Below, one piece after another: positions 7,316-43,688 of a stretch of DNA of 64,000 nt. The notes under the pieces were generated by a model. The model was not told the DNA's origin. It searched no databases and saw nothing but the letters and a program-made list of their open reading frames with translations. The DNA is from a virus (taxonomy: Duplodnaviria > Heunggongvirae > Uroviricota > Caudoviricetes): positions 101,455-165,454 of the IMG/VR virus record IMGVR_UViG_3300042472_000628. One strand, given 5' to 3'. Each line of letters opens with the position of its first letter. The stretch's first letter is position 1. The translations under genes were made by a program, and so were the position numbers.

Positions 7316-7323
7316 CTTTTAAA

Positions 7324-7511: not shown

Positions 7512-7519
7512 CACAGATA

Positions 7520-8110: not shown

Positions 8111-8200
8111 ATGCCTGATCAGCAATATCTTCCTAACGATTAAGATTACATATAGCTTAAAGAAATTTGTCGACACTAATTTCTGTAATTTTAATTGATT

Positions 8201-8276: not shown

Positions 8277-8283
8277 ACTATAT

Positions 8284-8355: not shown

Positions 8356-8408
8356 CAAATCTTAAGAAGTAATTAATCTTAAGACTGAATGGTTCGAAAC
8401 ATTCGGAA

Positions 8409-8499
8409 TGATTATGGTGTATGGTGCACAGTAGAAGTTAGTAAGCACATAGTGACTGAGGGCGGACACAGGATTAAGGTTCAAATCCTTATTAATCAG
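8409..8499 (+). tRNA. class II (long variable arm) tRNA-like, anticodon unresolved
   Basis: Acceptor tgattat/ttaatca (6 of 7 bp), T loop AAGGTTCAAATCCTT, length about 91 nt. Confidence 0.3.
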
Positions 8500-8505
8500 C
8501 AAAAT

Positions 8506-8579
8506 TCCTCAGTAGCTCAGTTGGTTAGAGCACCTGACTGTTAATCAGGGGGTCGTAAGTTCGAGTCTTACCTGGGGAG
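8506..8579 (+). tRNA. tRNA-Asn (GTT)
   Basis: Acceptor tcctcag/ctgggga; D arm tagctcagttggttagagca; anticodon stem cctga/tcagg with loop ctgttaa. Confidence 0.75.
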
Positions 8580-8645
8580 CTAACTACCAAAATTGAATGA
8601 TACGAGCCTCCAAAGTTCGAAAGGAGTCAGGTGGTAGTTAAATTT

Positions 8646-8726
8646 GGGAGTGTTGAGCAACGGTTGCTTAGCAGACTGTAAATCTGTGGCCTTACGGCAT
8701 TGGGGGTTCGAATCCCTCCACTCCCA
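8646..8726 (+). tRNA. tRNA-Tyr (GTA), class II
   Basis: Acceptor gggagtg/cactccc; anticodon loop ctgtaaa; long variable arm ggccttacggcat; T loop GGGGGTTCGAATCCCTC. Confidence 0.65.
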
Positions 8727-8735
8727 CTATAATAT

Positions 8736-8806
8736 ACATGTGTGGTGCAATGGTAGCATGACGGTCTCCAAAACCGTTGATGGGAGTTCGAATCTCTCCA
8801 CTTGTG
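8736..8806 (+). tRNA. tRNA-Trp (CCA)
   Basis: Anticodon stem acggt/accgt with loop ctccaaa; D stem gtgc/gcat; acceptor acatgtg/cacttgt has one internal mismatch. Confidence 0.55.
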
Positions 8807-9002
8807 CAAATAATAAGTTGATATGCTGTGAAAACCGAAATGAGCGCAAGTTGAGGTTAGGTGGGTTCGAATCCTGTTCAATAATTCCTATGTGGTGGAG
8901 CCAAGTAACAGATAACATATCATAGCCGATTTGGGTTGTGCACCTCGTCCGAGAAGCCCTAATAGTTCCTAATAGTTCGGTATGGAACAACTTATTATTA
9001 AT

Positions 9003-9076
9003 GGACTTGTAGCTCAGTTGGTTAGAGCACCGCACTCATAATGCGTAGGTCGTTGGTTCGAGTCCAGCCTGGTCCA
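9003..9076 (+). tRNA. tRNA with CAT anticodon (elongator Met or Ile2/lysidine type)
   Basis: D arm tagctcagttggttagagca; anticodon loop ctcataa without the GGG/CCC initiator signature. Confidence 0.6.
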
Positions 9077-9139
9077 CAGAATATGGAACAACATCGATCC
9101 CGTAATGCCATGGCTCGTGCACGAGTAACGGGATGCAAT

Positions 9140-9211
9140 AGTCGATTAGTTCAACGGATAGAACACTGAGCTACGGACTCAGGAATAAGGGTTCGAATCC
9201 TTTATTGACTA
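9140..9211 (+). tRNA. tRNA-Arg (ACG)
   Basis: Acceptor agtcgat/attgact; D stem gttc/gaac; anticodon stem ctgag/ctcag with loop ctacgga. Confidence 0.7.
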
Positions 9212-9220
9212 CAAATATAT

Positions 9221-9294
9221 TGCGGGTTAAAGTTCTGGTGAACTTATCGGTCTCATAAGCCGAATGAAGGGTAGTTCGATTCTGCCACCCGCTA
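9221..9294 (+). tRNA. tRNA with CAT anticodon (second non-initiator copy; Met or Ile2)
   Basis: Anticodon stem tcggt/gccga with loop ctcataa; T loop GGTAGTTCGATTCTGCC; acceptor gcgggt/acccgc. Confidence 0.5.
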
Positions 9295-9300
9295 CTAAAT

Positions 9301-9374
9301 TGCGATATGGTAGAGTTGGTTTCTTACGATGCTCTCATAAGGCATAGACTCTGGTTCGAGTCCAGATATCGCAA
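9301..9374 (+). tRNA. tRNA with CAT anticodon (third CAT species)
   Basis: Perfect acceptor tgcgata/tatcgca; anticodon stem atgct/ggcat with loop ctcataa; T loop TCTGGTTCGAGTCCAGA. Confidence 0.55.
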
Positions 9375-9379
9375 CACAT

Positions 9380-9507
9380 GATTGTACTTGTGCAGGGAAG
9401 CACAGCCCACCGGTAAATTGGGTGCCTTTTAGGCTAGGTTAATTTAAAGATGATGAAGTATCGATCAAGTAATCATCAGGGTTCGAGTCCTCTTACAATC
9501 ACGAAGA
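9380..9507 (+). ncRNA. about 128-nt tRNA-like RNA (perfect 7-bp acceptor gattgta/tacaatc + T-loop-like cagggttcgagtcct) with about 55 extra nt of internal hairpins
   Basis: Acceptor pairing and T loop seen directly; internal hairpins tgtgc-agggaa-gcaca and cacc-ggtaaattg-ggtg; may be an intron-containing tRNA or a stable small RNA. Confidence 0.35.
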
Positions 9508-9532
9508 GAAAAGCGAATAGTAATAATATTAG

Positions 9533-9604
9533 CGGCGATTAGTGGAGTGGTGACCACGCTGGCTATAGGGGCCGGAGAAGCAAGTTCGATTCTTGTATTG
9601 TCGT
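9533..9604 (+). tRNA. tRNA, anticodon uncertain (loop tataggg gives TAG, but no long variable arm and A33)
   Basis: Acceptor cggcgat/attgtcg (2 GU); D stem gtgg/ccac; T loop GCAAGTTCGATTCTTGT. Confidence 0.4.
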
Positions 9605-9795
9605 TATAAAATACTGGCCGCAATAAAATAAACCGGAAGTGTAGTAACGTGACAGATACTTAAGTTGCAAATAAAGTATTTGGTGTAGTTAAGTCTTACG
9701 TGGATTCGCGGTCTTAGGTAAGATGTTTATTTTATACTCTTTTTAAAAGTTTTTAGGGTGGTTCTGGTTCTTCAAAAACGCTATCACCTCCACCA

Positions 9796-9869
9796 GACTT
9801 CGTAGCTCAGTTGGTTAGAGCATCGCACTTTTAATGCGAGGGCCGATGGTTCGAGTCCATCCGGGGTCA
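9796..9869 (+). tRNA. tRNA-Lys (TTT)
   Basis: D arm tagctcagttggttagagca; anticodon stem tcgca/tgcga with loop cttttaa; T loop GATGGTTCGAGTCCATC. Confidence 0.75.
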
Positions 9870-10034
9870 CAATAAACTAAAAATTGTTACAATAAACTAA
9901 TAAGGTTTATTGATACAAAAAGAAGTTTACTGAATATGCTTCACTCATAATACTGCGATCTCTCAGTTAAAAGCTGTCGTAGAGTAAAGTTATAGTCCAA
10001 TATGGCTATAGGTTATGGTAAAGTGAAGCTCCAC

Positions 10035-10109
10035 GCTTTCTTAGCTCAGTTGGTTCAGAGCGCCTCGTTTACACCGAGGAGGTCACAGGTTCGAACCCTG
10101 TAGAAAGTA
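10035..10109 (+). tRNA. tRNA-Val (TAC)
   Basis: D arm tagctcagttggttcagagcg; anticodon stem cctcg/cgagg with loop tttacac; T loop ACAGGTTCGAACCCTGT. Confidence 0.75.
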
Positions 10110-10180
10110 CGACGGTGCACAAAGGGTACATGTCCTGGTCAGAGATTTATTCTCGCAAACTCGATACCTTAAGTTGAGCT

Positions 10181-10204
10181 GCCGATCTACGGGATCGGCT
10201 TTAT
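10181..10204 (+). terminator. hairpin gccgatc-tacgg-gatcggc followed by TTTAT (terminator or processing site inside the tRNA array)
   Basis: Perfect 7-bp inverted repeat directly 5' of tRNA-Leu(TAG). Confidence 0.4.
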
Positions 10205-10284
10205 GCCTGGGTGGTGGAATTGGTAGACACGGCGGTCTTAGAAACCGTGGCGAAAGCTTGAGAGTTCGAGTCTCTCCCTGGGTA
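10205..10284 (+). tRNA. tRNA-Leu (TAG), class II
   Basis: D region tg-gtg-gaattggtaga-cac matches the E. coli tRNA-Leu D loop; anticodon stem gcggt/accgt with loop cttagaa; variable arm ggcgaaagctt. Confidence 0.65.
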
Positions 10285-10287
10285 CTA

Positions 10288-10345
10288 GTGTTCATTATAA
10301 ATGAATGTTCATTGCCAATGAACACATGAAAATAATGAACATATA
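10288..10345 (+). promoter_or_regulatory. array of four 9-bp TGTTCATT/AATGAACA motifs in alternating orientation (two overlapping inverted-repeat pairs)
   Basis: gtgttcatt(10288) .. atgttcatt(10304) .. aatgaacac(10318) .. aatgaacat(10335); candidate operator or RNA structure between tRNA-Leu and tRNA-His. Confidence 0.4.
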
Positions 10346-10348
10346 CAT

Positions 10349-10422
10349 GGTGGTTATAGTGTTAGCGGTTAGCACGTCAGTTTGTGGTACTGATAGCATG
10401 GGTTCGAATCCCATTAATCACC
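10349..10422 (+). tRNA. tRNA-His (GTG) with encoded G-1
   Basis: Anticodon stem tcagt/actga (perfect) with loop ttgtggt; acceptor gtggtta/taatcac preceded by an extra G; T loop ATGGGTTCGAATCCCAT. Confidence 0.65.
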
Positions 10423-10429
10423 CAAAATT

Positions 10430-10514
10430 GGAAGATTGTCAGAGTGGTCTATTGTGCAACTTTGCTAAAGTTGTGGACTTCACGGTCCCGAAGGTTCGAA
10501 TCCTTCATCTTCCG
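10430..10514 (+). tRNA. tRNA-Ser (GCT), class II
   Basis: Perfect acceptor ggaagat/atcttcc; anticodon stem caact/agttg with loop ttgctaa; variable-arm hairpin tggacttcacggtccc; T loop GAAGGTTCGAATCCTTC. Confidence 0.75.
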
Positions 10515-10599
10515 CAAAAAATGAAACTTTTTTAATTGATCAAGTATAATTATCAAATAACAAAGTTCTTTAAAATATTAAAGGTTTCTTACAGCAATT

Positions 10600-10725
10600 A
10601 AAAAGCAATCAGAACCGGTACATTGTAGGTTCGAGTCCTACCTCCTCAACAAATTAACTATGAAAAATTGAGGAGTGGTGAAATTGGTAAACACACTGGT
10701 AAGCAAAAACAGAAACCTGACCATA
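10600..10725 (+). other. apparently permuted tRNA: T arm + 3' acceptor strand (gtaggttcgagtcctac-ctcctca, ending about 10648) lies UPSTREAM of its complementary 5' acceptor + D arm (tgaggag-tg-gtg-aaattggtaaa-cac, from about 10669)
   Basis: Exact complementarity ctcctca/tgaggag seen in sequence; halves are in reversed order on the same strand. Confidence 0.3.
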
Positions 10726-10914
10726 TTGGAATACATACAGCAAATTTACAAACTTTGACTTTTACTCAAACAAACTGTATTCCGTATTTTTAAAATATAA
10801 AGGATGCTTCCAGCAAATTTAAAAACTTTTATTGGAAAAAGCAAATCAGCATCCTGTTATTTTATTCATTTAACTAGCCAGCTTTATTAGATACATATAT
10901 AAATATTACAACAA

Positions 10915-11607
10915 ATGAAAACACATATAATTTATCTAAAGGGCAATGAATTCTCAGAGACCATGGTAAAAGATACCATAAAGTCTTTGAACAAATTCGA
11001 TATCGACTATGAATTATTTGATGGAGTTGTAGGCAGAAAAGGCATTGAAGTTTTAAAATCTTATAATGCAAAACCCTCAGCATATGTTAATATGGAAGAT
11101 TGGACCGATGGTACTATCGGTTGTTTAGCAAGTCATTATTTATTATGGGACGAGTGCTCTAAACAAGATCAACCTTTTTTAATTCTTGAACAAGATGCTG
11201 TTTTAGTTAGAGATCCTAGAGAAATACTACACTTAATAGAAAATGCATGTCATTTAGATGCATATTTACCCTTTAATAATTCAGGTGCTGTTACAGAACA
11301 TGAACACTTTAAAGCTTATAATGATGCTATCAAACTTTATACTAGTGGAGTTAAAAAACACCCTATTAGTAAATTTTATGGAGATAAGTCTGTAACTGGA
11401 AGCACTTTTAGAGGCGCATATGGATATATAATAACACCCAAAGGTGCCCAAGAAATCTTAAATTTTATAAATAAAAAAGGTATATTTCCAGCAGATGCAT
11501 GTTTATGTGAAAATGCTACAGATATTCAAAGATCAAATAGTACATACGTTAGATTAAATCCATTTTTCGAAACATTGGACTTACAAAGAAAATTTTCATC
11601 AAGATAA
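10915..11607 (+). CDS. glycosyltransferase family 25 (LOS/LPS beta-glycosyltransferase-like)
   Basis: GTIGCLASHYLLWDE motif and overall layout typical of GT25 (Lic2B/LgtB-like). Confidence 0.55.
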   Translation: MKTHIIYLKGNEFSETMVKDTIKSLNKFDIDYELFDGVVGRKGIEVLKSYNAKPSAYVNMEDWTDGTIGCLASHYLLWDECSKQDQPFLILEQDAVLVRDPREILHLIENACHLDAYLPFNNSGAVTEHEHFKAYNDAIKLYTSGVKKHPISKFYGDKSVTGSTFRGAYGYIITPKGAQEILNFINKKGIFPADACLCENATDIQRSNSTYVRLNPFFETLDLQRKFSSR

Positions 11608-11611
11608 CCAT

Positions 11612-11685
11612 AGTCATTTAGCTCAGTTGGTTAGAGCGCCTCGCTGATACCGAGGAGGTCGTAAGTTCGAGTCTTACATTGACTA
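11612..11685 (+). tRNA. tRNA-Ile (GAT)
   Basis: D arm tagctcagttggttagagcg; anticodon stem cctcg/cgagg with loop ctgatac; T loop GTAAGTTCGAGTCTTAC. Confidence 0.7.
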
Positions 11686-11689
11686 CATA

Positions 11690-23488: not shown

Positions 23489-24034
23489 ATGAAAATAGAT
23501 TGGATTTTAAAACAACATAAAGATACAAATCACATGTATGATACGTATCTTCCTTATGAATTTCATTTGAGAATGGTTTCAAATGTTGCTCAAGAATTTA
23601 TTAAAGCAATACCTGATACAAATGATGGAGAAACTTCATTTAGAGGATCGGTGCTTTTGGCAGCTTGGGGACATGACCTTATTGAAGATACTCGTGTTTC
23701 TTATAACGATGTAAAAGATCAATTAGGACAAGAAGCTGCCGATATTATTTATGCAGTTTCTAATGAGAAAGGTAAAACACGTAAAGAACGTGCAAACACA
23801 ACTTATTACAAAGGAATTCGTCAAACTCCAGGTGCAACATTCGTAAAACTATGTGACCGTATTGCAAACGTTCAATATTCCAAAATGACTGGAAGTAGAA
23901 TGTTTGAAATGTATAAGAAAGAAAACTCAGACTTCATTCAAGAACTTGGATGGTTTGGAGATGTTACAGACCCTAACTATGAGTTATTCTGTACATTACA
24001 AGAATTATTTGTTGAACCCCGTAAAGAAAAATAA
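23489..24034 (+). CDS. HD-domain phosphohydrolase
   Basis: H ... WGHDLIEDT ... D pattern. Confidence 0.5.
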   Translation: MKIDWILKQHKDTNHMYDTYLPYEFHLRMVSNVAQEFIKAIPDTNDGETSFRGSVLLAAWGHDLIEDTRVSYNDVKDQLGQEAADIIYAVSNEKGKTRKERANTTYYKGIRQTPGATFVKLCDRIANVQYSKMTGSRMFEMYKKENSDFIQELGWFGDVTDPNYELFCTLQELFVEPRKEK

Positions 24035-26180: not shown

Positions 26181-26226
26181 TTTTTTTATGTCAAAACTTT
26201 TTGGTATATTTACATATAATTAAAAA
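26181..26226 (+). promoter_or_regulatory. conserved promoter cassette 7 (T7-ATGTCAAAAC ... GGTATATTTACATATAATTAAAAA)
   Basis: Motif instance. Confidence 0.55.
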
Positions 26227-26236
26227 CAACTTAAAG

Positions 26237-27133
26237 ATGATAACATTAGACTTAGTTAATCCAGAAAAATCAGACATTAAATACAAAATTAGTCAATTTC
26301 CAGATGGTCAACAAACAGTAGACCTTATTGATTGGAATGACTTAATGATATATGAAGATGCTGTAAAAATCAGTTCACGTTTAAATAGTTTTAAGGACTT
26401 AGAATTAATTATTTGTGCAACAGCAGCAATCAGAAATATTAAACCAAATCGAGAAATCGCACTTTACGTTCCATACTTCATGGGAGCTCGTTCAGATCGT
26501 AAATTTGTTGACGGTGGTGTTAACTATTTGAAACAAGTTATTTGTCCAATCATTAACTCTTTAAACTTCATAACAGTAATTACATTGGATCCACATTCAG
26601 ATGTTTTAGAAGCATGTTTAAATAACTATGAGAAAACAGATAATCATACAGTAGTTAAATATGCACTTACAGATATTGATAATAAGAGAGATGCTCAAGA
26701 AAGAATTTGTTTAGTAAGCCCAGATGCTGGTGCATACAAGAAAATCTTTGATGTTGCTAAGAAGTTTCAAATCCAAAATATTGTTACGGCAAACAAAGTT
26801 AGAGATATGAGAACTGGTAACATTCTTAAAACAGAAGTACCAAACTTACCAGGATCTATCGGAGACCCTAACTCAGTTAATGATGATATGAAATATGTAA
26901 TCATTGATGATATTTGTGATGGTGGTAGAACTTTTATTGAATTAGCTAAAGCTATTAAAGCAAGCAGACCAAGTGCTAAAATTTATTTAGTAGTTACTCA
27001 TGGAATATTTAGTGCTGGTTTTACAGAGCTAAACAAATATTTCGAACGTATTTACACAACAAATTCTCATAGAGATATTGCTGATAATGAATATGATGTA
27101 AAAACAAACACAACTGCATTTAAAGTAATATAA
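26237..27133 (+). CDS. ribose-phosphate pyrophosphokinase (PRPP synthetase) family protein; candidate ADP-ribose pyrophosphokinase of an NAD+ reconstitution pathway
   Basis: PRPP-binding loop VIIDDICDGGRTF, VSPDAGAYKK, overall Prs layout; start set at ATG 26237 (track start 26201 lies in the promoter). Confidence 0.6.
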   Translation: MITLDLVNPEKSDIKYKISQFPDGQQTVDLIDWNDLMIYEDAVKISSRLNSFKDLELIICATAAIRNIKPNREIALYVPYFMGARSDRKFVDGGVNYLKQVICPIINSLNFITVITLDPHSDVLEACLNNYEKTDNHTVVKYALTDIDNKRDAQERICLVSPDAGAYKKIFDVAKKFQIQNIVTANKVRDMRTGNILKTEVPNLPGSIGDPNSVNDDMKYVIIDDICDGGRTFIELAKAIKASRPSAKIYLVVTHGIFSAGFTELNKYFERIYTTNSHRDIADNEYDVKTNTTAFKVI

Positions 27134-27348
27134 TGTATACAATAGATTCTTTATTTACACAGCATGGTTACGTTATAGAAATAGAAGTAGACCGTACAAG
27201 TGCTCCAAAGTTTGCATTTGACATATACAAATATGAACACTTTGGTAACTATGAAAAAATTGAAGTAAGAGATTGGTATTTATACAGAACATGGCAAGAA
27301 GCATTCGATGCTGCCATTGAAGAACTAACACAATTAAATTTAATATAA
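27133..27348 (+). CDS. hypothetical protein
   Basis: ORF track. Confidence 0.4.
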   Translation: MYTIDSLFTQHGYVIEIEVDRTSAPKFAFDIYKYEHFGNYEKIEVRDWYLYRTWQEAFDAAIEELTQLNLI

Positions 27349-27349
27349 G

Positions 27350-27484
27350 ATGGCTAAAAAAGCAAAAGCAGTAGAAAAGCAAGTACAAGAAGTTATTGTA
27401 CTAGTACACGATCCAATCTTAGGTTCAAGATATGAATTAAGAGAAGTTGAAGTAGAAGAATCTGAAAACGAGGAAGCAGAGTAA
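27350..27484 (+). CDS. small acidic hypothetical protein (44 aa)
   Basis: Hand translation MAKKAKAVEKQVQEVIVLVHDPILGSRYELREVEVEESENEEAE. Confidence 0.3.
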   Translation: MAKKAKAVEKQVQEVIVLVHDPILGSRYELREVEVEESENEEAE

Positions 27485-27981
27485 TGGAATCTATTTACAA
27501 TAGAGAATATCGAATGTATGGATTGGTGCCTTATAATTTAAGCCCAATCCAACAAGGTATCCAATTTGGACATGCTGTTGTAGAATATGGACTTGACTTC
27601 TTTAATACTCCAGAATACCAAGAATGGGCGAAAATAGACAAAACATTTATTATTTTAAATGGTGGAACTACTAATGACAGTAGCATGAGATTAGGAACTC
27701 TTCAGCAAAACTATTTTGAATTAACAGATCGAGGTATTAAAGTTGGAGAATTTCATGAGCCAGATTTGGGTGATCAAATGACAGCTGTAGTTTTCTTAGT
27801 TGATGACAGAGCATTTGACAAAACCCACTGGCCTGATTATGTTGGTCCATATTATATAGATGGTACAACACCAATCGAAATGGATTATTATGAATGGAAG
27901 ATGAAATTTGCTGAAACAGAAAAGGAAGCAGATCAGATCATTTTCTTAAGAGAATTTTTAAAACGATTTAGACTAGCATAA
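27484..27981 (+). CDS. hypothetical protein; weak resemblance to peptidyl-tRNA hydrolase PTH2 family
   Basis: SPIQQGIQFGHAVVEYG resembles the PTH2 s-x-G-K-i-a-A-Q-x-x-H-A motif; tentative. Confidence 0.3.
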   Translation: MESIYNREYRMYGLVPYNLSPIQQGIQFGHAVVEYGLDFFNTPEYQEWAKIDKTFIILNGGTTNDSSMRLGTLQQNYFELTDRGIKVGEFHEPDLGDQMTAVVFLVDDRAFDKTHWPDYVGPYYIDGTTPIEMDYYEWKMKFAETEKEADQIIFLREFLKRFRLA

Positions 27982-28544
27982 TGGGAGAATTAAACAAATT
28001 TATGAAATCGATGATAGATGTTGATACAAATTATCAAGAAATAGAAGGTGATTTAATTGCACTAGCAAAACAGGGAAAGTTTGATGTAATTACACATGGT
28101 TGTAATTGCTTGTCAAATATGGGAGCTGGAATAGCACCGCAAATGGCAAAAGCGTTTGGAGTTGACCGTTTTGAAATGGAAACTTGGGGAGCAACCATTG
28201 AAAAGCTCGGATGTATCGATTGGCAAACATTCGTCATTGGTCAAAATACAATCTGGTCTTTAGAAGACGCCGATAATAAAAGGAATGAACCTGAATTATC
28301 AGTTGTAAATTCATACACTCAATTCAGATATGGTAAGAATCATACCGATGGAGTTTCAAAACCTTTAGATTATGAGGCATTAACTCTTTGTATGCGTAAG
28401 ATCAATTTTCAATTTGAAGGTAAACATATTGGATTGCCAAAGATTGGAGCAGGATTAGCAGGTGGAGATTGGAATAGAATTAAAAGGATTATTCAAACAG
28501 AATTAAAAGACATGAAAGTGTCGGTAGTAATTTATAAACCATAA
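27981..28544 (+). CDS. macro domain (ADP-ribose binding/processing) protein
   Basis: DVITHGCNCLSNMGAGIAPQMAKAFG and GLPKIGAGLAGGDW blocks align to the macrodomain N-A-A-N...G-G-G-V..A-I and P-x-I-S-t-G-x-y-G motifs. Confidence 0.5.
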   Translation: MGELNKFMKSMIDVDTNYQEIEGDLIALAKQGKFDVITHGCNCLSNMGAGIAPQMAKAFGVDRFEMETWGATIEKLGCIDWQTFVIGQNTIWSLEDADNKRNEPELSVVNSYTQFRYGKNHTDGVSKPLDYEALTLCMRKINFQFEGKHIGLPKIGAGLAGGDWNRIKRIIQTELKDMKVSVVIYKP

Positions 28545-28547
28545 GAA

Positions 28548-28757
28548 ATGAAAGATTTAATAGAAGCGCTAATCATATTAGCTAAATACATGGATCCTGA
28601 ACAAAAATGGCCTACTCATTGCGAACATGATGTTCTTTATGTTTGTCACATTGACGAAGAAGATGTATCCGAAGAGGACACGAAAAGATTAGATGAATTA
28701 GGATTTCATCCAAGCGAAGAAGGCGGATTTCAATCTTATAGATTCGGTAGTTGTTAA
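28548..28757 (+). CDS. hypothetical protein
   Basis: ORF track. Confidence 0.4.
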   Translation: MKDLIEALIILAKYMDPEQKWPTHCEHDVLYVCHIDEEDVSEEDTKRLDELGFHPSEEGGFQSYRFGSC

Positions 28758-29245
28758 ATAAGATGAAGGTTATTTTTCTAGATTTTGACGGTGTATTAAA
28801 TGTAATTCCTCAAGGACATGATGATTTCGGTGGAATATTCCATCCTGAATTTGTAGAAAATCTAGGTAGAATCATTGATGAAACCGGAGCAAAATTAGTT
28901 ATTAGTTCTTCATGGAGACACATGGGATTGGAAAGACTACATAGAATGTGGAAACAACGTCAATATCCTGGAGAAATAATTGGAATTACACCAGATCTTA
29001 GATGGAACCATGATTTAGAAGGTGGCCCAGAAATGGTTCGTGGAGATGAAATACAGTCAATTCTCGATAGACAACCTGAAATAACTAATTACGTTATTCT
29101 TGATGATGACACGGATATGTTAAAGAGTCAACGAATGAACTTTGTACAAACATCGACCAATATTAATCATCCAGATTGTATCGATATTGGTTATGGATTA
29201 ACTAAAGAATGCACAAATAGAGCAATAAGAATTTTAAACAAATAG
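28751..29245 (+). CDS. HAD-superfamily phosphatase
   Basis: Motif I FLDFDGVL, motif II ISSSW, motif IV ILDDD. Confidence 0.55.
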   Translation: MLNKMKVIFLDFDGVLNVIPQGHDDFGGIFHPEFVENLGRIIDETGAKLVISSSWRHMGLERLHRMWKQRQYPGEIIGITPDLRWNHDLEGGPEMVRGDEIQSILDRQPEITNYVILDDDTDMLKSQRMNFVQTSTNINHPDCIDIGYGLTKECTNRAIRILNK

Positions 29246-29248
29246 AAT

Positions 29249-29461
29249 ATGTCACAATCTTCACCAGAAGGAATAATTTTAGGAAAAGGTTCTAAATTAG
29301 TTTCATTTAAAGCTTCAATTGATAATGAAGTAGTTGTTAATATAGAAAAGGACAATGCTTTAGAAAAAGCCATTTCATTATTAAAACAAACAACCGAATA
29401 TGAAGTTTTAGAAAGTTTCAGAGAAAAGGTAAAAAATCTTGAACAATTTAAAAACAAATAA
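29249..29461 (+). CDS. hypothetical protein
   Basis: ORF track. Confidence 0.4.
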   Translation: MSQSSPEGIILGKGSKLVSFKASIDNEVVVNIEKDNALEKAISLLKQTTEYEVLESFREKVKNLEQFKNK

Positions 29462-29951
29462 TATGAAAGTAACAGATAAACATGTATTTTTCTGGAATGG
29501 AATTTACTCACAATGGCATAAAGCTCCAATGACAATTGACAAGATTGAATATAATTCATGTGAACAATATATGATGCATCAAAAGGCATTATTATTTGGA
29601 GATGATATTGTAGCAAGTTTGATTATGGAGGAAACGAATCCAAGAGAGCAAAAGAAATATGGTAGACAAATCCAAAACTTTGATAAAGCAACTTGGGATA
29701 AAAATTGTTTGGCAATTGTTTATGAAGGAAACTTGGCAAAATTCAGACAAAATGCTGGATTAAGAGAAGAAATGTTAAATACTGGTGATCGTATCTTTGT
29801 AGAGGCTTCTCCATTAGATAATATTTGGGGAATTGGTCTTGATGAAAATGCCGAAGGAATTGATGATCCATCATATTGGTTAGGTTTAAATCTTTTAGGA
29901 CAAGCATTAACTCTTGTAAAAAATCAATTAAGAAATGAGACAATCAGGTAA
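29439..29951 (+). CDS. NADAR (YbiA-like, DUF1768) domain protein
   Basis: FFWNGIYSQWH ... SCEQYMMHQKALLFGD ... NLAKFRQN ... NTGDRIFVEASPLDNIWGIG follows the NADAR family pattern. Confidence 0.55.
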   Translation: MNNLKTNNMKVTDKHVFFWNGIYSQWHKAPMTIDKIEYNSCEQYMMHQKALLFGDDIVASLIMEETNPREQKKYGRQIQNFDKATWDKNCLAIVYEGNLAKFRQNAGLREEMLNTGDRIFVEASPLDNIWGIGLDENAEGIDDPSYWLGLNLLGQALTLVKNQLRNETIR

Positions 29952-31024: not shown

Positions 31025-31870
31025 ATGAAAAACGATGCATTAGGCGATCGCATGAAAGAGTTCTACGAAGATAGAACTAGAATCAAACTCCCAAGGAGAA
31101 CATTTACAATTATCCGTATTGACGGAAAAGCCTTTCACACCTATACGAAAGGATTAGAGAGACCATTTGACCAAGGACTTATTGAAGACATGAATGCAAC
31201 TACTGCATATTTATGTAAAAACATTCAAGGTGCTAAATTTGGTTATGTACAATCAGATGAGATTAGTTTAGTTCTAACAGACTTTGATGACCTAGGAACT
31301 CACGCTTGGTTTGACAACAACCTACAAAAAATGGTATCAGTTGCTGCTTCTATGGCCACTGCAGAATTCAATAAACTTAGGTTAATGAGATACATGAAAA
31401 ATAGCATGATCTTTTTAGAACCGGAACATATTGAAAAATTCAAAATGGCTGAATTCGACGCAAGAGCATTTCAAATTCCATTTATTGATGAGGTAGAAAA
31501 CTATTTTATCTGGAGACAACAAGACGCTGTAAGAAATTCAATTTCTTCAGTTGCTCAAAGTCTTTATAGTACTAAAGAATTACATGGTAAAAAAACAAGT
31601 GACATGCAAGAATTGATCTTCCAAAAAGGAATCAATTGGAATGACTATGATTTTCGTCTAAAACGAGGTGCAGTAATTGCAAAGGTGGAAGTTCCAGTAC
31701 TTGTAAAAACCAAAGAGTTTATTAATGATGGTGAAACACATGTAATAGACCCTACTCAAATTGTAATGAGAAACAAATGGCAAGTTGTAGAAACTCCAAC
31801 ATTTACACAAGACAGATGGTTCATTAAAGGATTAATAAACCCAACTAAAAACATAGACAATGATAATTAG
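31025..31870 (+). CDS. Thg1-like protein (tRNA-His guanylyltransferase family; 3'-5' polymerase / tRNA 5'-end repair)
   Basis: N-terminal RMKEFYEDRTRIKLPRRTFTIIRIDGKAFH...RPFD...FGYVQSDEISLV parallels Thg1 FEYVRxFE...IVVRIDGKKFH...KPND...GESDEYSF. Confidence 0.6.
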   Translation: MKNDALGDRMKEFYEDRTRIKLPRRTFTIIRIDGKAFHTYTKGLERPFDQGLIEDMNATTAYLCKNIQGAKFGYVQSDEISLVLTDFDDLGTHAWFDNNLQKMVSVAASMATAEFNKLRLMRYMKNSMIFLEPEHIEKFKMAEFDARAFQIPFIDEVENYFIWRQQDAVRNSISSVAQSLYSTKELHGKKTSDMQELIFQKGINWNDYDFRLKRGAVIAKVEVPVLVKTKEFINDGETHVIDPTQIVMRNKWQVVETPTFTQDRWFIKGLINPTKNIDNDN

Positions 31871-32318
31871 AGAACAAATAAATGCAGACTTTATAACTGC
31901 AATGAAAGCAAAAGACGAAGTAGCCAAAATGGCACTTAATAGTATTAAAGCAGCAATCACGAATGCTGAAAAGGGAAATGGAACTTGGGTTGCAACGAAT
32001 GAAGAGGTTATTAAAATAATTAATAAAGGAATCAAGCAACGTGAGGAATCCATTAAAATGTATGATTTGGCAAATAGACCAGAATTGTCTAAAAAAGAAT
32101 CAGAAGAGTGTGCAATCTTAAGAAGATATATGCCAGCACAAATGGAACCTCAAGAAATTGTAGATGCTCTTACAGAAATTATGCAAGAATTTAGTGGAAT
32201 AGTTACAAATCCACAAGCATTACAAGGTAAAACTATTGGCGAATTTAACAAAAGATACCAAGGTCGTGCAGAAATCGGTATAGTTAAGAGTGTTTTAGCA
32301 AATCTTGTAGATTGTTAA
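31860..32318 (+). CDS. GatB/YqeY-domain protein
   Basis: Full-length match to the YqeY pattern (AMKAKD..., IKQREESIKMY, ILRRYMPAQM, GKTIGEFNKRYQGRAE). Confidence 0.55.
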   Translation: MIIREQINADFITAMKAKDEVAKMALNSIKAAITNAEKGNGTWVATNEEVIKIINKGIKQREESIKMYDLANRPELSKKESEECAILRRYMPAQMEPQEIVDALTEIMQEFSGIVTNPQALQGKTIGEFNKRYQGRAEIGIVKSVLANLVDC

Positions 32319-32324: not shown

Positions 32325-32394
32325 TTTTAAAATAAATCACCTGATATTTTTTTATGTCAGGTTTTTTATGTATATTTACTCTATAATTAAAAAC
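32325..32394 (+). promoter_or_regulatory. conserved cassette 8 (degenerate TTGTTAATAACTTTTTT; hairpin acctga-T7AT-gtcaggt + T6; ATGTATATTTACTCTATAATTAAAA)
   Basis: Motif instance upstream of the NAMPT-like gene. Confidence 0.6.
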
Positions 32395-32403: not shown

Positions 32404-33984
32404 ATGAACCCATTATTTTTAACAGACGGTTACAAAACAGGACATCACCAACAATATCCAAAAGGAACAACGTTGGTTTATTCAAACTTCACACCTAGAA
32501 GTAATAAGTATGCTCCTAAAGGATGCGACCAATTAGTATCATTTGGACAACAAATGGTAATCAAACAAATTCACGAAGCATTTGACAAAGATTTCTTTAG
32601 CAAACCTAAAGATGAAGTTTGCGGCGAAATGAAACGTGAATTGTCAATGTACTTAAATACTGACTATGATGTTAGTCACTTTGAAGCATTACATGATTTA
32701 GGTTATTTACCAATCGTGGTAAAAACAATCGAAGAAGGTTCTTTAGTACCAATGAGAGTTCCTGTATTGACAATTTACAATACACATCCAGATTTCTATT
32801 GGATTACAAACTACTTAGAAACAATTATTTCTAACTTGTTATGGAAACCAATGACTTCAGCAACTATTGCACATGCTTACCGTAAATTATTTACATCATG
32901 GCAAGAAAAAACCGATGCTGAAAAAGGTTGGTTCGTAGATTGGCAAGCACATGATTTTTCAATGAGAGGTTTAGATTCTATTGATGCAACTATTAGTTCA
33001 GGATTGGGTCACTTAACAAGTTTCTCAGGTTCAGACAGTTTACCAGCAATCTTTGGAGCTCGTAAATTCTATGGAGAAACTGGATTTGTTGCTGGATCTG
33101 TGAATGCAACTGAACACTCAGTTATGTGTGCTGGATCTAAAGAAGATGAGGTTGGAACATTTAGAAACTTGATGGAAACATATCCAACAGGAATTCTTTC
33201 AATCGTATCAGATACTTGGGACTTATGGAAAGTTTGTACTGAACATATTGTTACCTTGAAAGAAGAGATTTTAGCTCGTGATGGTAAGGTAGTTATTAGA
33301 CCCGACTCTGGTGATCCAGTAGATATTATTTGCGGCGCAAGTGTTATTAAAACAAACGCGCACCATGATAATGATGTGGTTGCTTACTTAGGTGGAGTAG
33401 CAGAAGTTAATCCTACCGATGAATATTTAAACAAACCAGAAGTAAAAGGAGTTATTGAATTACTTTGGGATGTATTCGGTGGAACTATCAATGAACAAGG
33501 TTACAAAGTTCTTGATTCTCATATTGGAGCAATCTACGGAGATTCAATAACGTTAGATCGTGCAGAACAAATCTTTACAAGATTAGAAGCAAAAGGTTTC
33601 GCAAGTACAAATATTGTATTAGGCGTTGGAAGTTTTACATACCAATATAACACTAGAGATACTTTTGGTTTTGCAATGAAAGCAACTTATGTTGAAGTTA
33701 AAGAACATTTTAGAACTGTTAAAGACGAGAATGGTAACTATACACATTCAGAAGAAATCATCACAGGTCGTGAAATCTTTAAAGATCCAATCACTGATGA
33801 CGGTATTAAGAAATCTGCAAAAGGTTTATTAAGAGTTGCCGGAGACGAAACATGTTTCTTATTAGAAGATCAATGTACTTGGGAAAATGAAGCCACTGGT
33901 AAATTAAAAACTATCTATAAAGATGGCCAATTCGAAAACCAAACTACACTAACAGAAATTCGTGAACGTTTAACTAATTCATAA
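32404..33984 (+). CDS. nadV: nicotinamide phosphoribosyltransferase family protein (NadV/NAMPT-like); candidate nicotinamide ADP-ribose transferase if paired with an ADPR pyrophosphokinase
   Basis: N-terminus MNPLFLTDGYKTGHHQQYP and length 526 aa are diagnostic of the NAMPT family. Confidence 0.7.
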   Translation: MNPLFLTDGYKTGHHQQYPKGTTLVYSNFTPRSNKYAPKGCDQLVSFGQQMVIKQIHEAFDKDFFSKPKDEVCGEMKRELSMYLNTDYDVSHFEALHDLGYLPIVVKTIEEGSLVPMRVPVLTIYNTHPDFYWITNYLETIISNLLWKPMTSATIAHAYRKLFTSWQEKTDAEKGWFVDWQAHDFSMRGLDSIDATISSGLGHLTSFSGSDSLPAIFGARKFYGETGFVAGSVNATEHSVMCAGSKEDEVGTFRNLMETYPTGILSIVSDTWDLWKVCTEHIVTLKEEILARDGKVVIRPDSGDPVDIICGASVIKTNAHHDNDVVAYLGGVAEVNPTDEYLNKPEVKGVIELLWDVFGGTINEQGYKVLDSHIGAIYGDSITLDRAEQIFTRLEAKGFASTNIVLGVGSFTYQYNTRDTFGFAMKATYVEVKEHFRTVKDENGNYTHSEEIITGREIFKDPITDDGIKKSAKGLLRVAGDETCFLLEDQCTWENEATGKLKTIYKDGQFENQTTLTEIRERLTNS

Positions 33985-34256
33985 TGAACAGAAAAAATGT
34001 AACATTATTAATATTAATCTTTGCAGCGCTTGTAGCCTTTGTGGTTACAAGCTGCGAAGGTAATGTACAAGTTTCAACTCAACCGAATCCGCATCGAATG
34101 GAACTTGATAGTAATTCACAATACTCTGATCAAAATTATAGAGTCTACACTCTTGAAGGTTGTGAATATATTGTAGTCGGAATGGGTAATACTCAATGGG
34201 GATCCCATAAAGGAAATTGTAAAAATTCAATACACAAAGAAAATGGAAGTAATTAA
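33984..34256 (+). CDS. small lipoprotein / secreted Cys-rich protein
   Basis: Signal peptide LLILIFAALVAFVVTSC. Confidence 0.4.
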   Translation: MNRKNVTLLILIFAALVAFVVTSCEGNVQVSTQPNPHRMELDSNSQYSDQNYRVYTLEGCEYIVVGMGNTQWGSHKGNCKNSIHKENGSN

Positions 34257-34719
34257 ACCAGAACCAAAAAATGCATATTATAACGATCATCATGTTAAAA
34301 TATTTTTAGCAGGTTCTATTGAAATGGGAAAAGCAGAAGATTGGCAAGCAGTAATTCCTGAATTATTTAAAGATCGTCAAAACTTGGTTTTTTTCAATCC
34401 TCGTAGAGATGATTGGGATAGTTCATGGGAACAAAAAGAATCTAATCCACAATTCAGTGGACAAGTAAATTGGGAAATGAATAAGTTAGATGAATGCGAT
34501 ATTATTTTCATGTACTTTTCTCCAGAAACCAAGAGTCCAATCAGTTTATTAGAACTTGGTATGCATGCTGCATCTGAAAAAATGATTGTTTGTTGTCCAG
34601 ATGAATTTTGGCGCAAAGGAAATGTAGATATAGTTTGCAGTCGACACAACATTCCAGTCTATAATACTTTAGAAGGTGCAATTGGTAGATTAAGAACAGA
34701 ATTAAAAGACGTAGAATAA
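34243..34719 (+). CDS. nucleoside 2-deoxyribosyltransferase-like (DNPH1/Rcl family) protein
   Basis: VKIFLAGSIEMG N-terminus and ...ECDIIFMYFSPETKSPISLLELGMHAASEKMIVC core resemble the Nuc_deoxyrib_tr fold. Confidence 0.45.
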   Translation: MEVIKPEPKNAYYNDHHVKIFLAGSIEMGKAEDWQAVIPELFKDRQNLVFFNPRRDDWDSSWEQKESNPQFSGQVNWEMNKLDECDIIFMYFSPETKSPISLLELGMHAASEKMIVCCPDEFWRKGNVDIVCSRHNIPVYNTLEGAIGRLRTELKDVE

Positions 34720-34999: not shown

Positions 35000-35070
35000 C
35001 TTTTTAAAAAATAATCAGTCAAACATTTTTTTGTTTGGCTTTTTTTATGTATATTAGCCTTATAATTAAA
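34990..35070 (+). promoter_or_regulatory. conserved cassette 9 (TGTTCGTAACTTTTT; hairpin agtcaaaca-T7-tgtttggct; ATGTATATTAGCCTTATAATTAAAAG)
   Basis: Motif instance. Confidence 0.6.
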
Positions 35071-40703: not shown

Positions 40704-40777
40704 GGGGGTGTAGCTCAGTTGGCTAGAGCATCTGCCTTGCACGCAGAGGGTCGCAGGTTCGATTCCTGTCACCTCCA
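40704..40777 (+). tRNA. tRNA-Ala (TGC)
   Basis: Acceptor gggggtg/cacctcc with G3-U70; D arm tagctcagttggctagagca; anticodon stem tctgc/gcaga with loop cttgcac. Confidence 0.7.
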
Positions 40778-40781
40778 CTAA

Positions 40782-42543: not shown

Positions 42544-42816
42544 ATGAACTACAAAAATCTATTTAGGGACATTTTAATTATCTTGACAATCACTATTGCG
42601 TTATTGCCAGTGGGAGATCAGATTTTTAATCTTATGAGTGCAAAATCAGATTTTGCATATTTAGGTCCAATCTTATTATTCAGCGTAGGATTTGCTGCTG
42701 GATTATTAATCTACGAGAGATGCAAATCAATTATTTACAATTATAAACAATCTGAAGAATGTCAGAAAAAAGCTACTGGGAAATCCAGCAAGAACAAAGA
42801 GAACAAGAAAAATTAA
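42544..42816 (+). CDS. small membrane protein
   Basis: Two hydrophobic helices. Confidence 0.4.
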   Translation: MNYKNLFRDILIILTITIALLPVGDQIFNLMSAKSDFAYLGPILLFSVGFAAGLLIYERCKSIIYNYKQSEECQKKATGKSSKNKENKKN

Positions 42817-42839
42817 ATCAACAATTAAAAATTAAAAAA

Positions 42840-43688
42840 ATGGTAAAGAAAATTTTAATCGGAGTAGTAGCGTTTATCGCTTTAGTAGTAGTGTTTCAAT
42901 CATGTGAGCGTATTGACGCAGGACATGTCGGAGTAAAAGTTAATTTGTACGGAAGTGGTAAAGGTGTAGATGATGTTGTAGCATGTACTGGAGTTGTATT
43001 TTATAATCCAATTTCAACAAAAATTTATGAGTTTCCAACATATATTCAACACAAAGAATATAAATTAGACAAAGAATCTGGTGTTGATAATTCATTTATC
43101 GTAAACTCAAAGGATGGTTCTGAATTTAGTGTTTCGCCTATTATGAACTACTCTGTTAAGTCAGAAAAAGTACCAGCAATTTTTGCTAAATATCGTAGAT
43201 CTCTTCCAGAAATCGAGGAAGGATTCTTAAAAACAGCAGTTTATGATGCATTCCGTTTAGCTACTAATAAATATACAGCAGACGAATTAATTTCAAATCG
43301 TGCAGTATTTGAAGTAGAAGTACGAAGATTACTTGAAGGACAATTACTTAAAGAGGGATTCGTTATTAATCAATTCACATCCAACTTAATTTATCCTGAA
43401 ACATTCAAGAGATCAATTGAAGCTAAGAATAACGCAGTACAATCAGCATTAAGAGCAGAAAATGAAGTTAAAACAGCAGAAGCACAAGCTAAAATTAAAG
43501 TTGCAACTGCAAATGGTAATGCCTCTGCAATGTTAGCATCTGCAAGAGCTGAAGCTGAAGCAAATAGTTTAAAACAAAAAACTATCACACCAATGTTACT
43601 TCAATTAGAATGGATCAATAAATGGAACGGTAAATTACCAACTACAATGTTAGGTGATAAATCAACTTCTATGATTGGTATCAAGTAA
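42840..43688 (+). CDS. SPFH / band-7 (prohibitin-flotillin-like) membrane protein
   Basis: N-terminal TM anchor then SPFH-like core (GHVGVKVN..., coiled AEAQAKIKVATANG...ARAEAEANSLKQ); start set at ATG 42840. Confidence 0.5.
   Translation: MVKKILIGVVAFIALVVVFQSCERIDAGHVGVKVNLYGSGKGVDDVVACTGVVFYNPISTKIYEFPTYIQHKEYKLDKESGVDNSFIVNSKDGSEFSVSPIMNYSVKSEKVPAIFAKYRRSLPEIEEGFLKTAVYDAFRLATNKYTADELISNRAVFEVEVRRLLEGQLLKEGFVINQFTSNLIYPETFKRSIEAKNNAVQSALRAENEVKTAEAQAKIKVATANGNASAMLASARAEAEANSLKQKTITPMLLQLEWINKWNGKLPTTMLGDKSTSMIGIK

Follow-up and report, generated by a model that had tools for sequence, protein, structure and literature searches.

The region from 26.2 to 34.7 kb of the window, which is the whole 64,000-nucleotide stretch of phage DNA analysed, is probably an expanded NARP1-AP locus for NAD+ reconstitution, with Adps and Namat as its core enzymes, the macro-domain protein as Adpp and a NADAR protein as a fourth member, the HAD and Nudix genes being separate from it. 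Homologies, motif conservation and gene order were computed here; the chemistry of Adps, Namat and Adpp and the de-ADP-ribosylation of guanine by NADAR have been established by others on homologues. We infer that the window proteins may do as their homologues do and that the output of NADAR may be used by NARP1. Adps would pyrophosphorylate free ADP-ribose (ADPR) at C1'', and Namat would couple the product to nicotinamide, by which NAD+ would be remade after its cleavage by host defence. RES-domain (aRES) NADases leave ADPR-1''-phosphate as a dead end, which Macro/Adpp would turn into ADPR usable by Adps. NADAR would be an ADP-ribosyl N-glycohydrolase releasing free ADPR either from guanine that a DarT1-type defence has ADP-ribosylated in phage DNA or from soluble N-linked ADPR signals; with either substrate, it would strip a hostile ADPR adduct and refill the same ADPR pool. 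HAD would be an accessory gene that was inserted separately and codes for a phosphatase of the RNA-end or protein type, and the distant Nudix gene would be unrelated. The features are as follows.

26201 to 27133 (likely start 26237), plus strand: Adps-like PRPS homologue, predicted ADP-ribose pyrophosphokinase, first NARP1 enzyme
27133 to 27348, plus strand: conserved small ORF of 71 aa between the Adps-like and PTH2-like genes
27484 to 27981, plus strand: PTH2-fold protein of 165 aa, putative accessory gene
27981 to 28544, plus strand: macro-domain protein of 187 aa, predicted Adpp (ADPR-1''-phosphate phosphatase) by homology to Adpp of phage Gary
28548 to 28757 and 29249 to 29461: small ORFs flanking HAD, grouped with it as a probable passenger/indel cassette
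28763 to 29245, plus strand: capless HAD phosphatase, HAD_SAK_2 family (Pfam HAD_SAK_2, 2.5e-27)
29463 to 29951, plus strand: bare NADAR domain, predicted ADP-ribosyl N-glycohydrolase (PF08719, 1e-48)
31025 to 32318, plus strand: Thg1-like gene (31025 to 31870; PF04446, 2e-29) and YqeY gene (31860 to 32318; PF09424, 5e-31)
32404 to 33984, plus strand: predicted Namat (nicotinamide ADP-ribose transferase), second NARP1 enzyme
34243 to 34719, plus strand: nucleoside 2-deoxyribosyltransferase-like (NDT) gene, recurrent 3' of Namat (PF15891, 1.4e-35)
56595 to 57083, plus strand: generic Nudix hydrolase, outside the module (PF00293, 1.3e-12)

The Prs-like gene is predicted to be of the phage Adps type and not a canonical PRPP synthetase. 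Its product (298 aa in the JGI gene call) matches phrog_619 (6.5e-67) and Adps of Vibrio phage Gary (32% identity, E 3e-32), compared to E 2e-12 for the best PRPS match in the PDB, and scored below all NCBIfam PRPS cut-offs (77 bits vs 113). This protein shares the catalytic His, Asp, Lys and DD motifs with the Adps proteins of SPbetaL1, Gary and JD007; conservation was compared at motif level, and the residue numbering of Adps in PMC13586617 did not fit SPbetaL1 Adps. In the Adps clade, 97% of members have a Namat gene in their vicinity, as is also the case here. The best PDB matches of the NAMPT-like protein are SPbetaL1 Namat structures (9W5X, 9W5W; 3e-144), while canonical NAMPT reached about 1e-50. 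It is 49% identical to SPbetaL1 Namat and 44% to Gary Namat. The clamp residues F392 and Y396 and the catalytic R306 (SPbetaL1 Namat numbering) are kept and the segment GSFTYQYNTR is identical to that of SPbetaL1, whereas the clamp-loop residue R40 is replaced by Lys in a loop described as variable. With its Nampt-like core, the aromatic residues of the adenine selectivity clamp and R306, the protein is a predicted Namat.

The domain assignments of the initial annotation hold on profile search for HAD, NADAR and Nudix. For the macro protein, the Pfam Macro match (PF01661) stayed below threshold (E 0.005, 17.1 bits vs a 22-bit cut-off) and covers the C-terminal 35 residues only. Despite this, the predicted macro domain is confirmed by PDB matches (BT1257 2fg1/2afc, E 1e-9; 5e3b, 2e-6; yeast Poa1p 6lfu, 4e-4), by phrog_335 (3e-43) and by the ADPR-binding motifs GD, H-x-x-N-C, MG-G-(I/V)-A and P-x-I-G, which are conserved in the alignment. 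Residues G23, D24, H39, N42, G48, G50, P153, I155, G156 and G161 are invariant in the macro proteins of the window and of the Gary, FADO and Cellulophaga phages. Over its full length the protein is 30% identical to Gary Adpp (KNV71_gp137; E 4e-17) and is predicted to be the Adpp of NARP1-AP, a pathway marked by a Poa1p-like macro gene associated with the adps/namat pair; here the macro gene lies between the two. The earlier proposal that the macro protein feeds ADPR into NAD+ reconstitution agrees with experiments on its homologue Adpp in NARP1-AP (bioRxiv 10.64898/2026.01.28.702374).

The macro, HAD, NADAR and Nudix ORFs all lie on the plus strand where the initial annotation had placed them, the first three between the Prs-like (26201/26237-27133) and NAMPT-like (32404-33984) genes. 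The likely start of HAD is ATG 28763 (JGI call of 160 aa, homologues begin at M5) and that of NADAR is ATG 29463 (JGI call of 162 aa); the earlier coordinates 28751 and 29439 are both TTG. Adps and namat are 5.3 kb apart. The distance from adps to macro is 0.85 kb with three ORFs between, that from macro to namat 3.9 kb with 11 ORFs, among them NADAR, HAD, Thg1-like and YqeY. Most genes between 26.2 and 32.3 kb overlap or are spaced by 1-5 nt, the PTH2-like stop overlapping the macro start by 1 nt. The PTH2-fold family is abundant and unannotated, with more than 3,000 metagenomic homologues. Larger gaps precede the Adps-like (40 nt), Thg1-like (78 nt) and Namat (86 nt) genes. No terminator-like hairpins were found on the plus strand from 26.2 to 32.3 kb, and one is located at 32339-32362, upstream of Namat. 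A scan for sigma-70 promoters gave fewer sites than shuffled sequence did, and for this phage it carries no information. The arrangement is looser than the three-gene NARP1-AP prototype. The genome is that of a large, tRNA-rich phage of low GC content, with 26 tRNA genes in the window, and its host probably belongs to the Bacteroidota. A DNA search of a phage collection with the whole 26.1-34.0 kb region returned matches to the Namat gene alone, at about 67% identity, and therefore no close cultured relative.

Gene neighbourhoods were compared in non-redundant related metagenomic phage loci, 57 anchored on macro and 25 on NADAR, along with 54 anchored on Thg1. Of the 57 macro loci, 39 have an Adps-like gene no more than 3 kb away from macro, and 36 of the 57 contain a NAMPT-like gene. 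Around NADAR, macro (16/25) and an Adps-like gene (14/25) were found within 3 kb, and a NAMPT-like gene is present in 20 loci. The order Adps-macro-NADAR-Namat occurs in at least 12 NADAR-anchored loci, including compact Adps-macro-NADAR-Namat(-NDT) rows such as L095-L101; the PF15891 gene was seen in 27 macro-anchored and 15 NADAR-anchored loci. The 71-aa ORF was found inside this 3-kb distance from macro in 11 of the 57. Linkage of NADAR is kept at 45-90% NADAR identity and through rearranged gene orders, and in two loci (L086, L111) NADAR stands between or beside Adps and Namat without macro. Since related loci share ancestry, these counts are not independent events. The co-location of macro and NADAR with these genes is beyond chance, that of HAD and Nudix is not, and NADAR is a conserved companion of NARP1-AP. 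Of the single module previously proposed, macro and NADAR stand as conserved neighbours of Adps and Namat, but neither HAD, a neighbour of macro in one of 57 loci and missing from L001, the compact relative that is closest, nor the Nudix gene, 26 kb off, belongs to it.

It might be argued that there is no functional unit at all and that unrelated accessory genes came to stand in a row by chance in a hypervariable early region of a big phage. The interval between Adps and Namat indeed varies from 1 to about 15 ORFs among relatives, the HAD cassette represents an indel, and many of the small ORFs lack conservation. However, adjacency of macro to Adps and of NADAR to macro and Namat is kept across 27-90% protein identity and rearrangements, and a macro homologue was shown by experiment to be required together with Adps and Namat (bioRxiv 10.64898/2026.01.28.702374). 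For macro and NADAR a chance run is already contradicted, and as an account of the whole row it is hardly credible.

The NADAR protein belongs to the NADAR superfamily (PF08719, 166 bits vs a cut-off of 35; TIGR02464, 143 vs 74). Compared to 8BAU (E 8e-13), seven of eight ADPR-contact and catalytic residues are kept: E43, K50, R79, W89, E125, D130 and W133 have equivalents, and Asn takes the place of R93. Identity to a near-copy of NADAR-Bas60 is 33% (E 8e-29). The features of a DarG1-type antitoxin (DarT1-associated, BC4488) were not found in this protein, the subfamily-defining position being Glu (FVEASP) and not Asp. The domain begins about 12 residues from the N-terminus, so that there is no N-terminal DNA-binding extension. 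No ADP-ribosyltransferase (ART), including an adjacent DarT1, was detected among the window ORFs scanned.

These properties bear on a second explanation, according to which macro (acting on thymidine-ADPr like DarG) and NADAR (acting on guanine-ADPr like AdfN) form a DNA/RNA de-ADP-ribosylation pair against DarT-type toxins, their proximity to NARP1 is a matter of counter-defence clustering and neither feeds NARP1. All phage NADARs tested reverse guanine ADP-ribosylation and counter DarTG1 (PMC11257639), and the relationship to the NADAR-Bas60 near-copy points the same way. Since the substrate of the tested phage NADARs is DNA guanine-ADPr and no soluble one is known, the link to NARP1 may reflect counter-defence clustering only. 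PMC13309987 reports an anti-defence macro protein of a phage that resembles DarG2, and Bacillus phage FADO carries a NADAR-x-macro pair without a NARP1 gene in a 14.5-kb region. In the same macro clade, further members without NARP1 nearby occur in Cellulophaga phage phi17:2, in T4-like Tk.4 phages and in about 16 of the 57 loci, and therefore the family has other uses. The window macro protein itself matched the DarG model (E 2e-8, 34 bits vs a 250-bit cut-off) and TARG1, in both cases weakly and over part of its length. However, both matches span the last ~40 residues only, whereas its only full-length characterised homologues are ADPR-1''-phosphate phosphatases (Gary Adpp, E 4e-17, and Poa1p). 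Moreover, the macro gene follows an Adps-like gene in 39/57 loci, and NADAR keeps its place by Adps and Namat even without macro. De-ADP-ribosylation is also compatible with a supply of ADPR to Adps, the two not being mutually exclusive. A de-ADP-ribosylation pair that does not feed NARP1 is considered unlikely. FADO, where the macro gene is next to NADAR and not next to NARP1 genes, had been taken up as a candidate for a cultured Adps-macro-NADAR-Namat locus and was rejected, as was Staphylococcus Kayvirus, whose member JD007 has a plain two-gene NARP1 and no NADAR in a 13-kb region.

Beyond the expanded NARP1-AP locus, a more general idea can be put forward tentatively, although it is rather doubtful: a set of interchangeable deprotection enzymes may serve NARP1 as their hub, each stripping a different substituent from ADPR's distal ribose, and NADAR may be the missing N-glycosidic member. 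Removal of these substituents would allow Adps to pyrophosphorylate C1''. Macro/Adpp would take off the 1''-phosphate and RyDEP would cut O-glycosidic 1''-2'/3' links, both of which reactions were shown by others. NADAR would return N-linked ADPR immune signals or adducts to an NAD+ precursor, candidate substrates being His-ADPR-type Thoeris signals, N1-/N7-cyclic ADPR and base-ADPr on nucleic acids. It is conceivable that the conserved PTH2-fold protein between Adps and Adpp is a fourth such enzyme, for example a 2''/3''-O-acyl-ADPR esterase.

The HAD protein belongs to the HAD_SAK_2 family (96 bits vs a cut-off of 27.5). The catalytic residues D11-x-D13, S52/S53 and D118-D120 do not vary across 24 homologues, and the structural model of the protein has a capless HAD fold. 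A function as an ADPR-derivative phosphatase feeding NARP1 was rejected as its principal explanation in view of the lack of synteny, the capless fold and the paralogues that accompany Thg1-like genes (within 3 kb in 10 of the 54 Thg1-anchored loci). HAD and the small ORFs flanking it probably do not belong to the NAD+ module. The Nudix protein matches the generic Nudix fold alone and is not identifiable as an ADP-ribose pyrophosphatase; no NCBIfam equivalog reached its cut-off, the best ones, Deinococcus Nudix hydrolase and RppH-type models, lying far below. Its best PDB match is Dcp2 (2e-5), and it looks like a decapping or RppH-type enzyme. In view of these matches and of its missing linkage (just one of the 57 loci around macro gave a match, a weak one, and none of the 25 around NADAR did), it was rejected as a module member.

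A third explanation regards the row as an RNA/tRNA repair set, in which HAD_SAK_2 heals RNA ends, the Thg1-like, YqeY and PTH2-like proteins service tRNAs, and macro and NADAR clear ADPR-1''-phosphate or Appr>p left by an NAD+-dependent 2'-phosphotransferase, a task that Poa1p has in the tRNA splicing of yeast. The name of the HAD_SAK_2 family, published RNA-repair predictions for SAK-type HADs, NADAR and Macro, the native role of Poa1p, the number of tRNA genes in the window, the presence of Thg1-like, YqeY and PTH2-fold genes in the same row and the HAD_SAK_2 paralogues near Thg1-like genes are in line with it. By contrast, macro and NADAR go along with Adps and Namat rather than with HAD or Thg1. 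Tpt1/KptA, sirtuin, RNA ligase, RtcB and polynucleotide kinase were not found in about 60 Pfam-scanned ORFs of the window, which is part of a genome of perhaps ~255 kb. For the entire row this explanation is improbable, while for the HAD gene itself a role in RNA/tRNA repair probably holds, even though no RNA ligase or kinase was found as a partner in the window. The Thg1-like and YqeY genes are tRNA-related genes interposed in this lineage and not general NARP1 partners: a NAMPT-like gene is near the Thg1-like gene in 19 of the 54 Thg1-anchored loci, all of which belong to the closer ones of the relatives sampled. The suggestion that the Thg1-like protein is a cryptic NMN adenylyltransferase tied to Namat was dropped because closer Thg1 homologues alone adjoin Namat.

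If the assignments hold, the range of NARP1-AP, so far Vibrio and Pseudomonas phages, also takes in a large clade of big phages that are uncultured, and the pathway tolerates many inserted genes. NADAR is a useful lead, being a conserved insert of NARP1 operons, yet having DNA de-ADP-ribosylation as its only proven phage role. Should it act on soluble N-linked ADPR signals, it would be a third enzyme class turning host immune molecules into NAD+. The same reasoning makes the PTH2-fold family a candidate worth study.

The locus is mostly explained already by described systems, and the initial statement that its arrangement is not a described operon type is outdated, since Adps-macro-Namat is NARP1-AP. 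NADAR and Macro beside phage NAD+ salvage genes had likewise been described before. Iyer et al. (2021, PMC7824862; 2022, PMC9503650) reported that NADAR adjoins NadV-type salvage genes and co-occurs with Macro, and they predicted an activity towards soluble ADPR derivatives, e.g., ADPr-1''P and cADPr. Their NAD+-ADPr network neighbourhoods are computational only, the Nudix link proposed there lacks support here, and PRPS-like and NadV genes are treated as classical salvage because the papers predate NARP1. Among phage NADARs, T4 AdfN/gp30.3, NADAR-Bas32 and NADAR-Bas60, which neutralises DarT1, are known anti-DarT factors (PMC11257639). Like these, the window protein is a stand-alone bare NADAR of a large phage with the catalytic Glu and Lys kept, and it shares the FVEASP Glu with the near-copy of NADAR-Bas60, whereas T4 AdfN has His at this position. 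On the other hand, the anti-DarT genes have not been reported inside NARP1 operons, and there is no DarT context in this window. Yeast Poa1p is of the same macro subfamily with the same predicted reaction, ADPR-1''-phosphate to ADPR, but clears a by-product of Tpt1, and Tpt1/KptA was not found among the scanned window ORFs. The closest system is NARP1-AP of Vibrio phage Gary, a three-gene pathway shown in January 2026 to defeat aRES defence, in which Adpp was biochemically validated as a Poa1p-like ADPR-1''-phosphate phosphatase (Osterman et al., bioRxiv 10.64898/2026.01.28.702374). The two loci agree in their three enzyme families and in the order of these (Adps, Adpp and Namat identities of 32%, 30% and 44%), with the Poa1p-like macro gene 3' of adps. 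They differ in that Gary possesses a tight three-gene operon, while inserted ORFs, a hairpin before Namat and a different host characterize the present locus. Besides Adpp, RyDEP provides a precedent for ADPR-producing inserts in NARP1 operons. This glycosidase with an RyR domain, whose gene is an insert of the NARP1 operon in mycobacteriophage DyoEdafos, frees linear ADPR from a defence-made ADPR derivative and fuels Adps and Namat (bioRxiv 10.64898/2026.05.28.727677). The unassigned ORFs of the row are without any Pfam match and thus without an RyR-domain match, and RyDEP has a fold unrelated to NADAR, cleaving O-glycosidic ribose-ribose bonds of 2'/3'cADPR and not N-glycosidic bonds. Nevertheless, RyDEP follows the logic proposed here for NADAR, that of an accessory gene in a NARP1 operon supplying ADPR.

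The genes on either side of the macro and NADAR genes are, as judged from their products' sequences, the two genes of the phage NAD+ reconstitution pathway NARP1, Adps (ADPR pyrophosphokinase) and Namat (nicotinamide ADP-ribose transferase). For the NAMPT-like protein (gene at 32404-33984), the top solved relatives were the SPbetaL1 Namat structures 9W5X and 9W5W (3e-144), canonical NAMPT being matched at about 1e-50. Compared with SPbetaL1 Namat, the protein shows 49% identity and retains the catalytic R306 of this enzyme together with its clamp-helix aromatics F392 and Y396, which according to the SPbetaL1 Namat paper set Namat apart from Nampt. The Prs-like protein (26201-27133) scored under all curated PRPS cut-offs. 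Its identity to Adps of Vibrio phage Gary, which is functional, amounts to 32%, and the catalytic motifs common to Adps proteins are conserved.

The macro ORF (27981-28544) was found as annotated and its product is a predicted Adpp. The protein remained under the Pfam threshold (17 bits vs. 22) but matched phrog_335 (3e-43) and the solved macro proteins BT1257 (1e-9), a Streptomyces-type macrodomain (2e-6) and yeast Poa1p (4e-4), and it retains the macro ADPR-binding motifs. Its best cultured match belongs to Cellulophaga phage phi17:2 (48% identity). Using the NARP1-AP prototype of Vibrio phage Gary as reference operon, a full-length alignment with Gary Adpp was obtained (30% identity, E 4e-17). 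As described in a January 2026 preprint, RES-domain defence proteins (aRES) split NAD+ to ADPR-1''-phosphate, which cannot be used by Adps; Adpp strips the phosphate from this compound, the pathway with Adpp being NARP1-AP, and a Poa1p-like macro gene lies within the operon of ~15% of NARP1 phages (bioRxiv 10.64898/2026.01.28.702374). Macro homologues (identity ≥48%) defined a set of 57 non-redundant IMG/VR loci of 20 kb; an Adps-like gene was located within 3 kb of macro in 39 of them and a NAMPT-like gene was present in 36, both counts being lower bounds because of contig ends. The initial annotation had regarded the arrangement as an undescribed operon type, which is incorrect, since Adps-macro-Namat is NARP1-AP (same preprint). 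With the present locus, this kind gains a new and expanded member.

The HAD protein (28751-29245; likely start ATG 28763 according to JGI gene calls on an identical contig, with which homologue alignments concur) is a solid HAD_SAK_2 member (2.5e-27) with invariant catalytic aspartates. Its gene adjoins macro in one of the 57 macro loci, and macro or NADAR was near HAD in only 2 of 11 HAD-anchored loci. L001 is a compact relative (macro 88%, NADAR 90% identical) in which NADAR directly follows macro, and this identifies the segment p69-HAD-p70 as an indel; relative to L001, HAD and the two flanking small ORFs behave as an inserted cassette. The respective features are:

28548-28757, + strand: p69, small ORF (69 aa) flanking HAD, conserved only in near-identical contigs
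29249-29461, + strand: p70, small ORF (70 aa) flanking HAD, conserved only in near-identical contigs
48-257, + strand: second HAD_SAK_2 gene, C-terminal portion only (truncated by the start of the window)

Due to this second gene, the phage has at least two HAD_SAK_2 paralogues. The predicted structure of HAD (pLDDT 84) is that of a capless HAD, a type whose substrates in this superfamily are mostly large or macromolecular. The model was closest to MDP-1, UBLCP1, Scp1 and HisB-N, and the T4 Pnkp 3'-phosphatase was also similar. The Nudix protein (56595-57083) is a generic Nudix resembling decapping or RppH-type enzymes; its gene is 26 kb away and had a single weak match in related neighbourhoods. 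The ORFs and domains named by the initial annotation were thus all recovered (macro by PDB, phrog_335 and motifs, HAD_SAK_2, NADAR at 1e-48 and a generic Nudix). Their proposed union in one ADPR-handling module was right in spirit for macro, given its Adpp homology, and is plausible for NADAR, whereas HAD and Nudix have to be removed from it as they are not syntenic.

Further genes of the row are:

31025-32318, + strand: Thg1-like and YqeY genes, between NADAR and Namat
34243-34719, + strand: PF15891 nucleoside 2-deoxyribosyltransferase-like (NDT) gene, next after Namat bar one lipoprotein-like ORF of 90 aa

The Thg1-like and YqeY genes are interposed in closer relatives only. In 10 of 54 loci anchored on the Thg1-like gene (e.g. 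L144 and L148), a HAD_SAK_2 paralogue was detected no more than 3 kb away from it, suggesting that HAD and Thg1-like proteins form an RNA-end repair pairing in other phages. The genes might also be read as an RNA-repair set, but this explanation is weakened by the fact that neither Tpt1/KptA, RNA ligase, Nmnat, sirtuin nor ADP-ribosyltransferase was found among ~60 ORFs of the window; as the window is only part of the genome, the explanation may still hold. The PF15891 gene again follows Namat in 27 of the 57 loci anchored on macro and in 15 of the 25 anchored on NADAR and may therefore be a further NARP1-linked gene of the N-glycosidase type. Genes between 26201 and 30947 mostly overlap or are 1-5 nt apart, and + strand terminator-like hairpins occur at only two places in the 25.5-36.5 kb region, one immediately ahead of Namat (32339-32362) and the other at 35017-35040. 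This hints that Adps through YqeY may constitute one transcription unit and Namat-NDT another.

The large phage genome that holds the window has a GC content of ~31% and carries almost all genes on the + strand. No close relative was found among 50,697 deposited phage genomes, in which the NAMPT-like gene alone was matched (~67% identity); IMG/VR contains dozens of related contigs with sizes up to 434 kb. Several ORFs begin with Bacteroidota-style lipoprotein signals, from which a Bacteroidota host is inferred. Twenty-five tRNA genes are clustered at 5053-11686 and another one lies at 40704. Within the array, the tRNA-His gene (10349-10423) encodes G at position -1, so that G-1 addition does not obviously require the Thg1-like enzyme. 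The lone tRNA-Ala gene (40704-40778) precedes the gene for an SPFH/Band-7 protein (42759-43688) by 2 kb; SPFH modules with tRNA-like RNA were reportedly proposed as RNA-repair scaffolds by Burroughs and Aravind in 2016. The gene at 23489-24034 (+) codes for a protein of 181 aa that weakly matches HD_4 (RelA/SpoT-type HD); homologues occur in 12 of the 57 macro-anchored loci, where they mostly precede the Adps-like gene by a few kb. A 1,067-aa ORF (51089-54292, +) lies in a stretch of higher GC (38%); the next genes encode a spermidine-synthase-like protein, an NAD-dependent epimerase and a thioesterase.

The NADAR assignment (29439-29951; likely start ATG 29463 according to independent JGI gene calls on the identical contig) is unambiguous, with a Pfam match at 1e-48 and the TIGR02464 cut-off passed. 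NADAR homologues (45-90% identity) served as anchors for 25 non-redundant loci; macro was within 3 kb of NADAR in 16 and an Adps-like gene in 14, while 20 loci contained a NAMPT-like gene. The order Adps-macro-NADAR-Namat was observed in at least 12, some rows being gap-free and followed by the PF15891 gene (e.g. L095-L101). In L086 and L111, NADAR borders on Adps and Namat without macro; L092 and L106 are rearranged in order with the linkage kept. NADAR is a conserved companion of the NARP1 genes. In Bacillus phage FADO (L117), NADAR and macro form a trio with a small ORF between them (7028-8304), the macro gene being annotated as 'ADP-ribose 1''-phosphate phosphatase related'. As the surrounding 14.5-kb region harbors no NARP1 genes, the NADAR-macro pairing also exists independently of Adps and Namat.

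The NADAR protein is a bare domain without N-terminal extension. It retains seven of eight ADPR-contact and catalytic residues of the Phytophthora NADAR-ADPR complex and has Glu at the subfamily-defining position. A near-copy of the NADAR-Bas60 gene, found via the published cloning primer, encodes a protein with 33% identity over the full length (E 8e-29). Since NADAR-Bas60, like NADAR-Bas32 and T4 AdfN, strips ADP-ribose off DNA guanine and counters DarTG1 (PMC11257639), the chemistry is very likely ADP-ribosyl N-glycohydrolysis with release of ADPR. The natural substrate here would be either DNA or an N-linked ADPR compound in soluble form; Iyer et al. reported that NADAR neighbours salvage genes of the NadV type and predicted that its substrates are soluble (PMC7824862, PMC9503650). 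A literature search retrieved no experimental link between NADAR and NARP1. The interest that remains lies in candidate NARP1 accessories, namely NADAR and perhaps also the PTH2-fold protein (27484-27981). The glycosidase RyDEP, whose gene is inserted in the NARP1 operon of a mycobacteriophage, converts 2'/3'cADPR to ADPR for Adps and Namat (bioRxiv 10.64898/2026.05.28.727677) and is a direct precedent for ADPR feeder genes in NARP1 operons, the role considered for NADAR.
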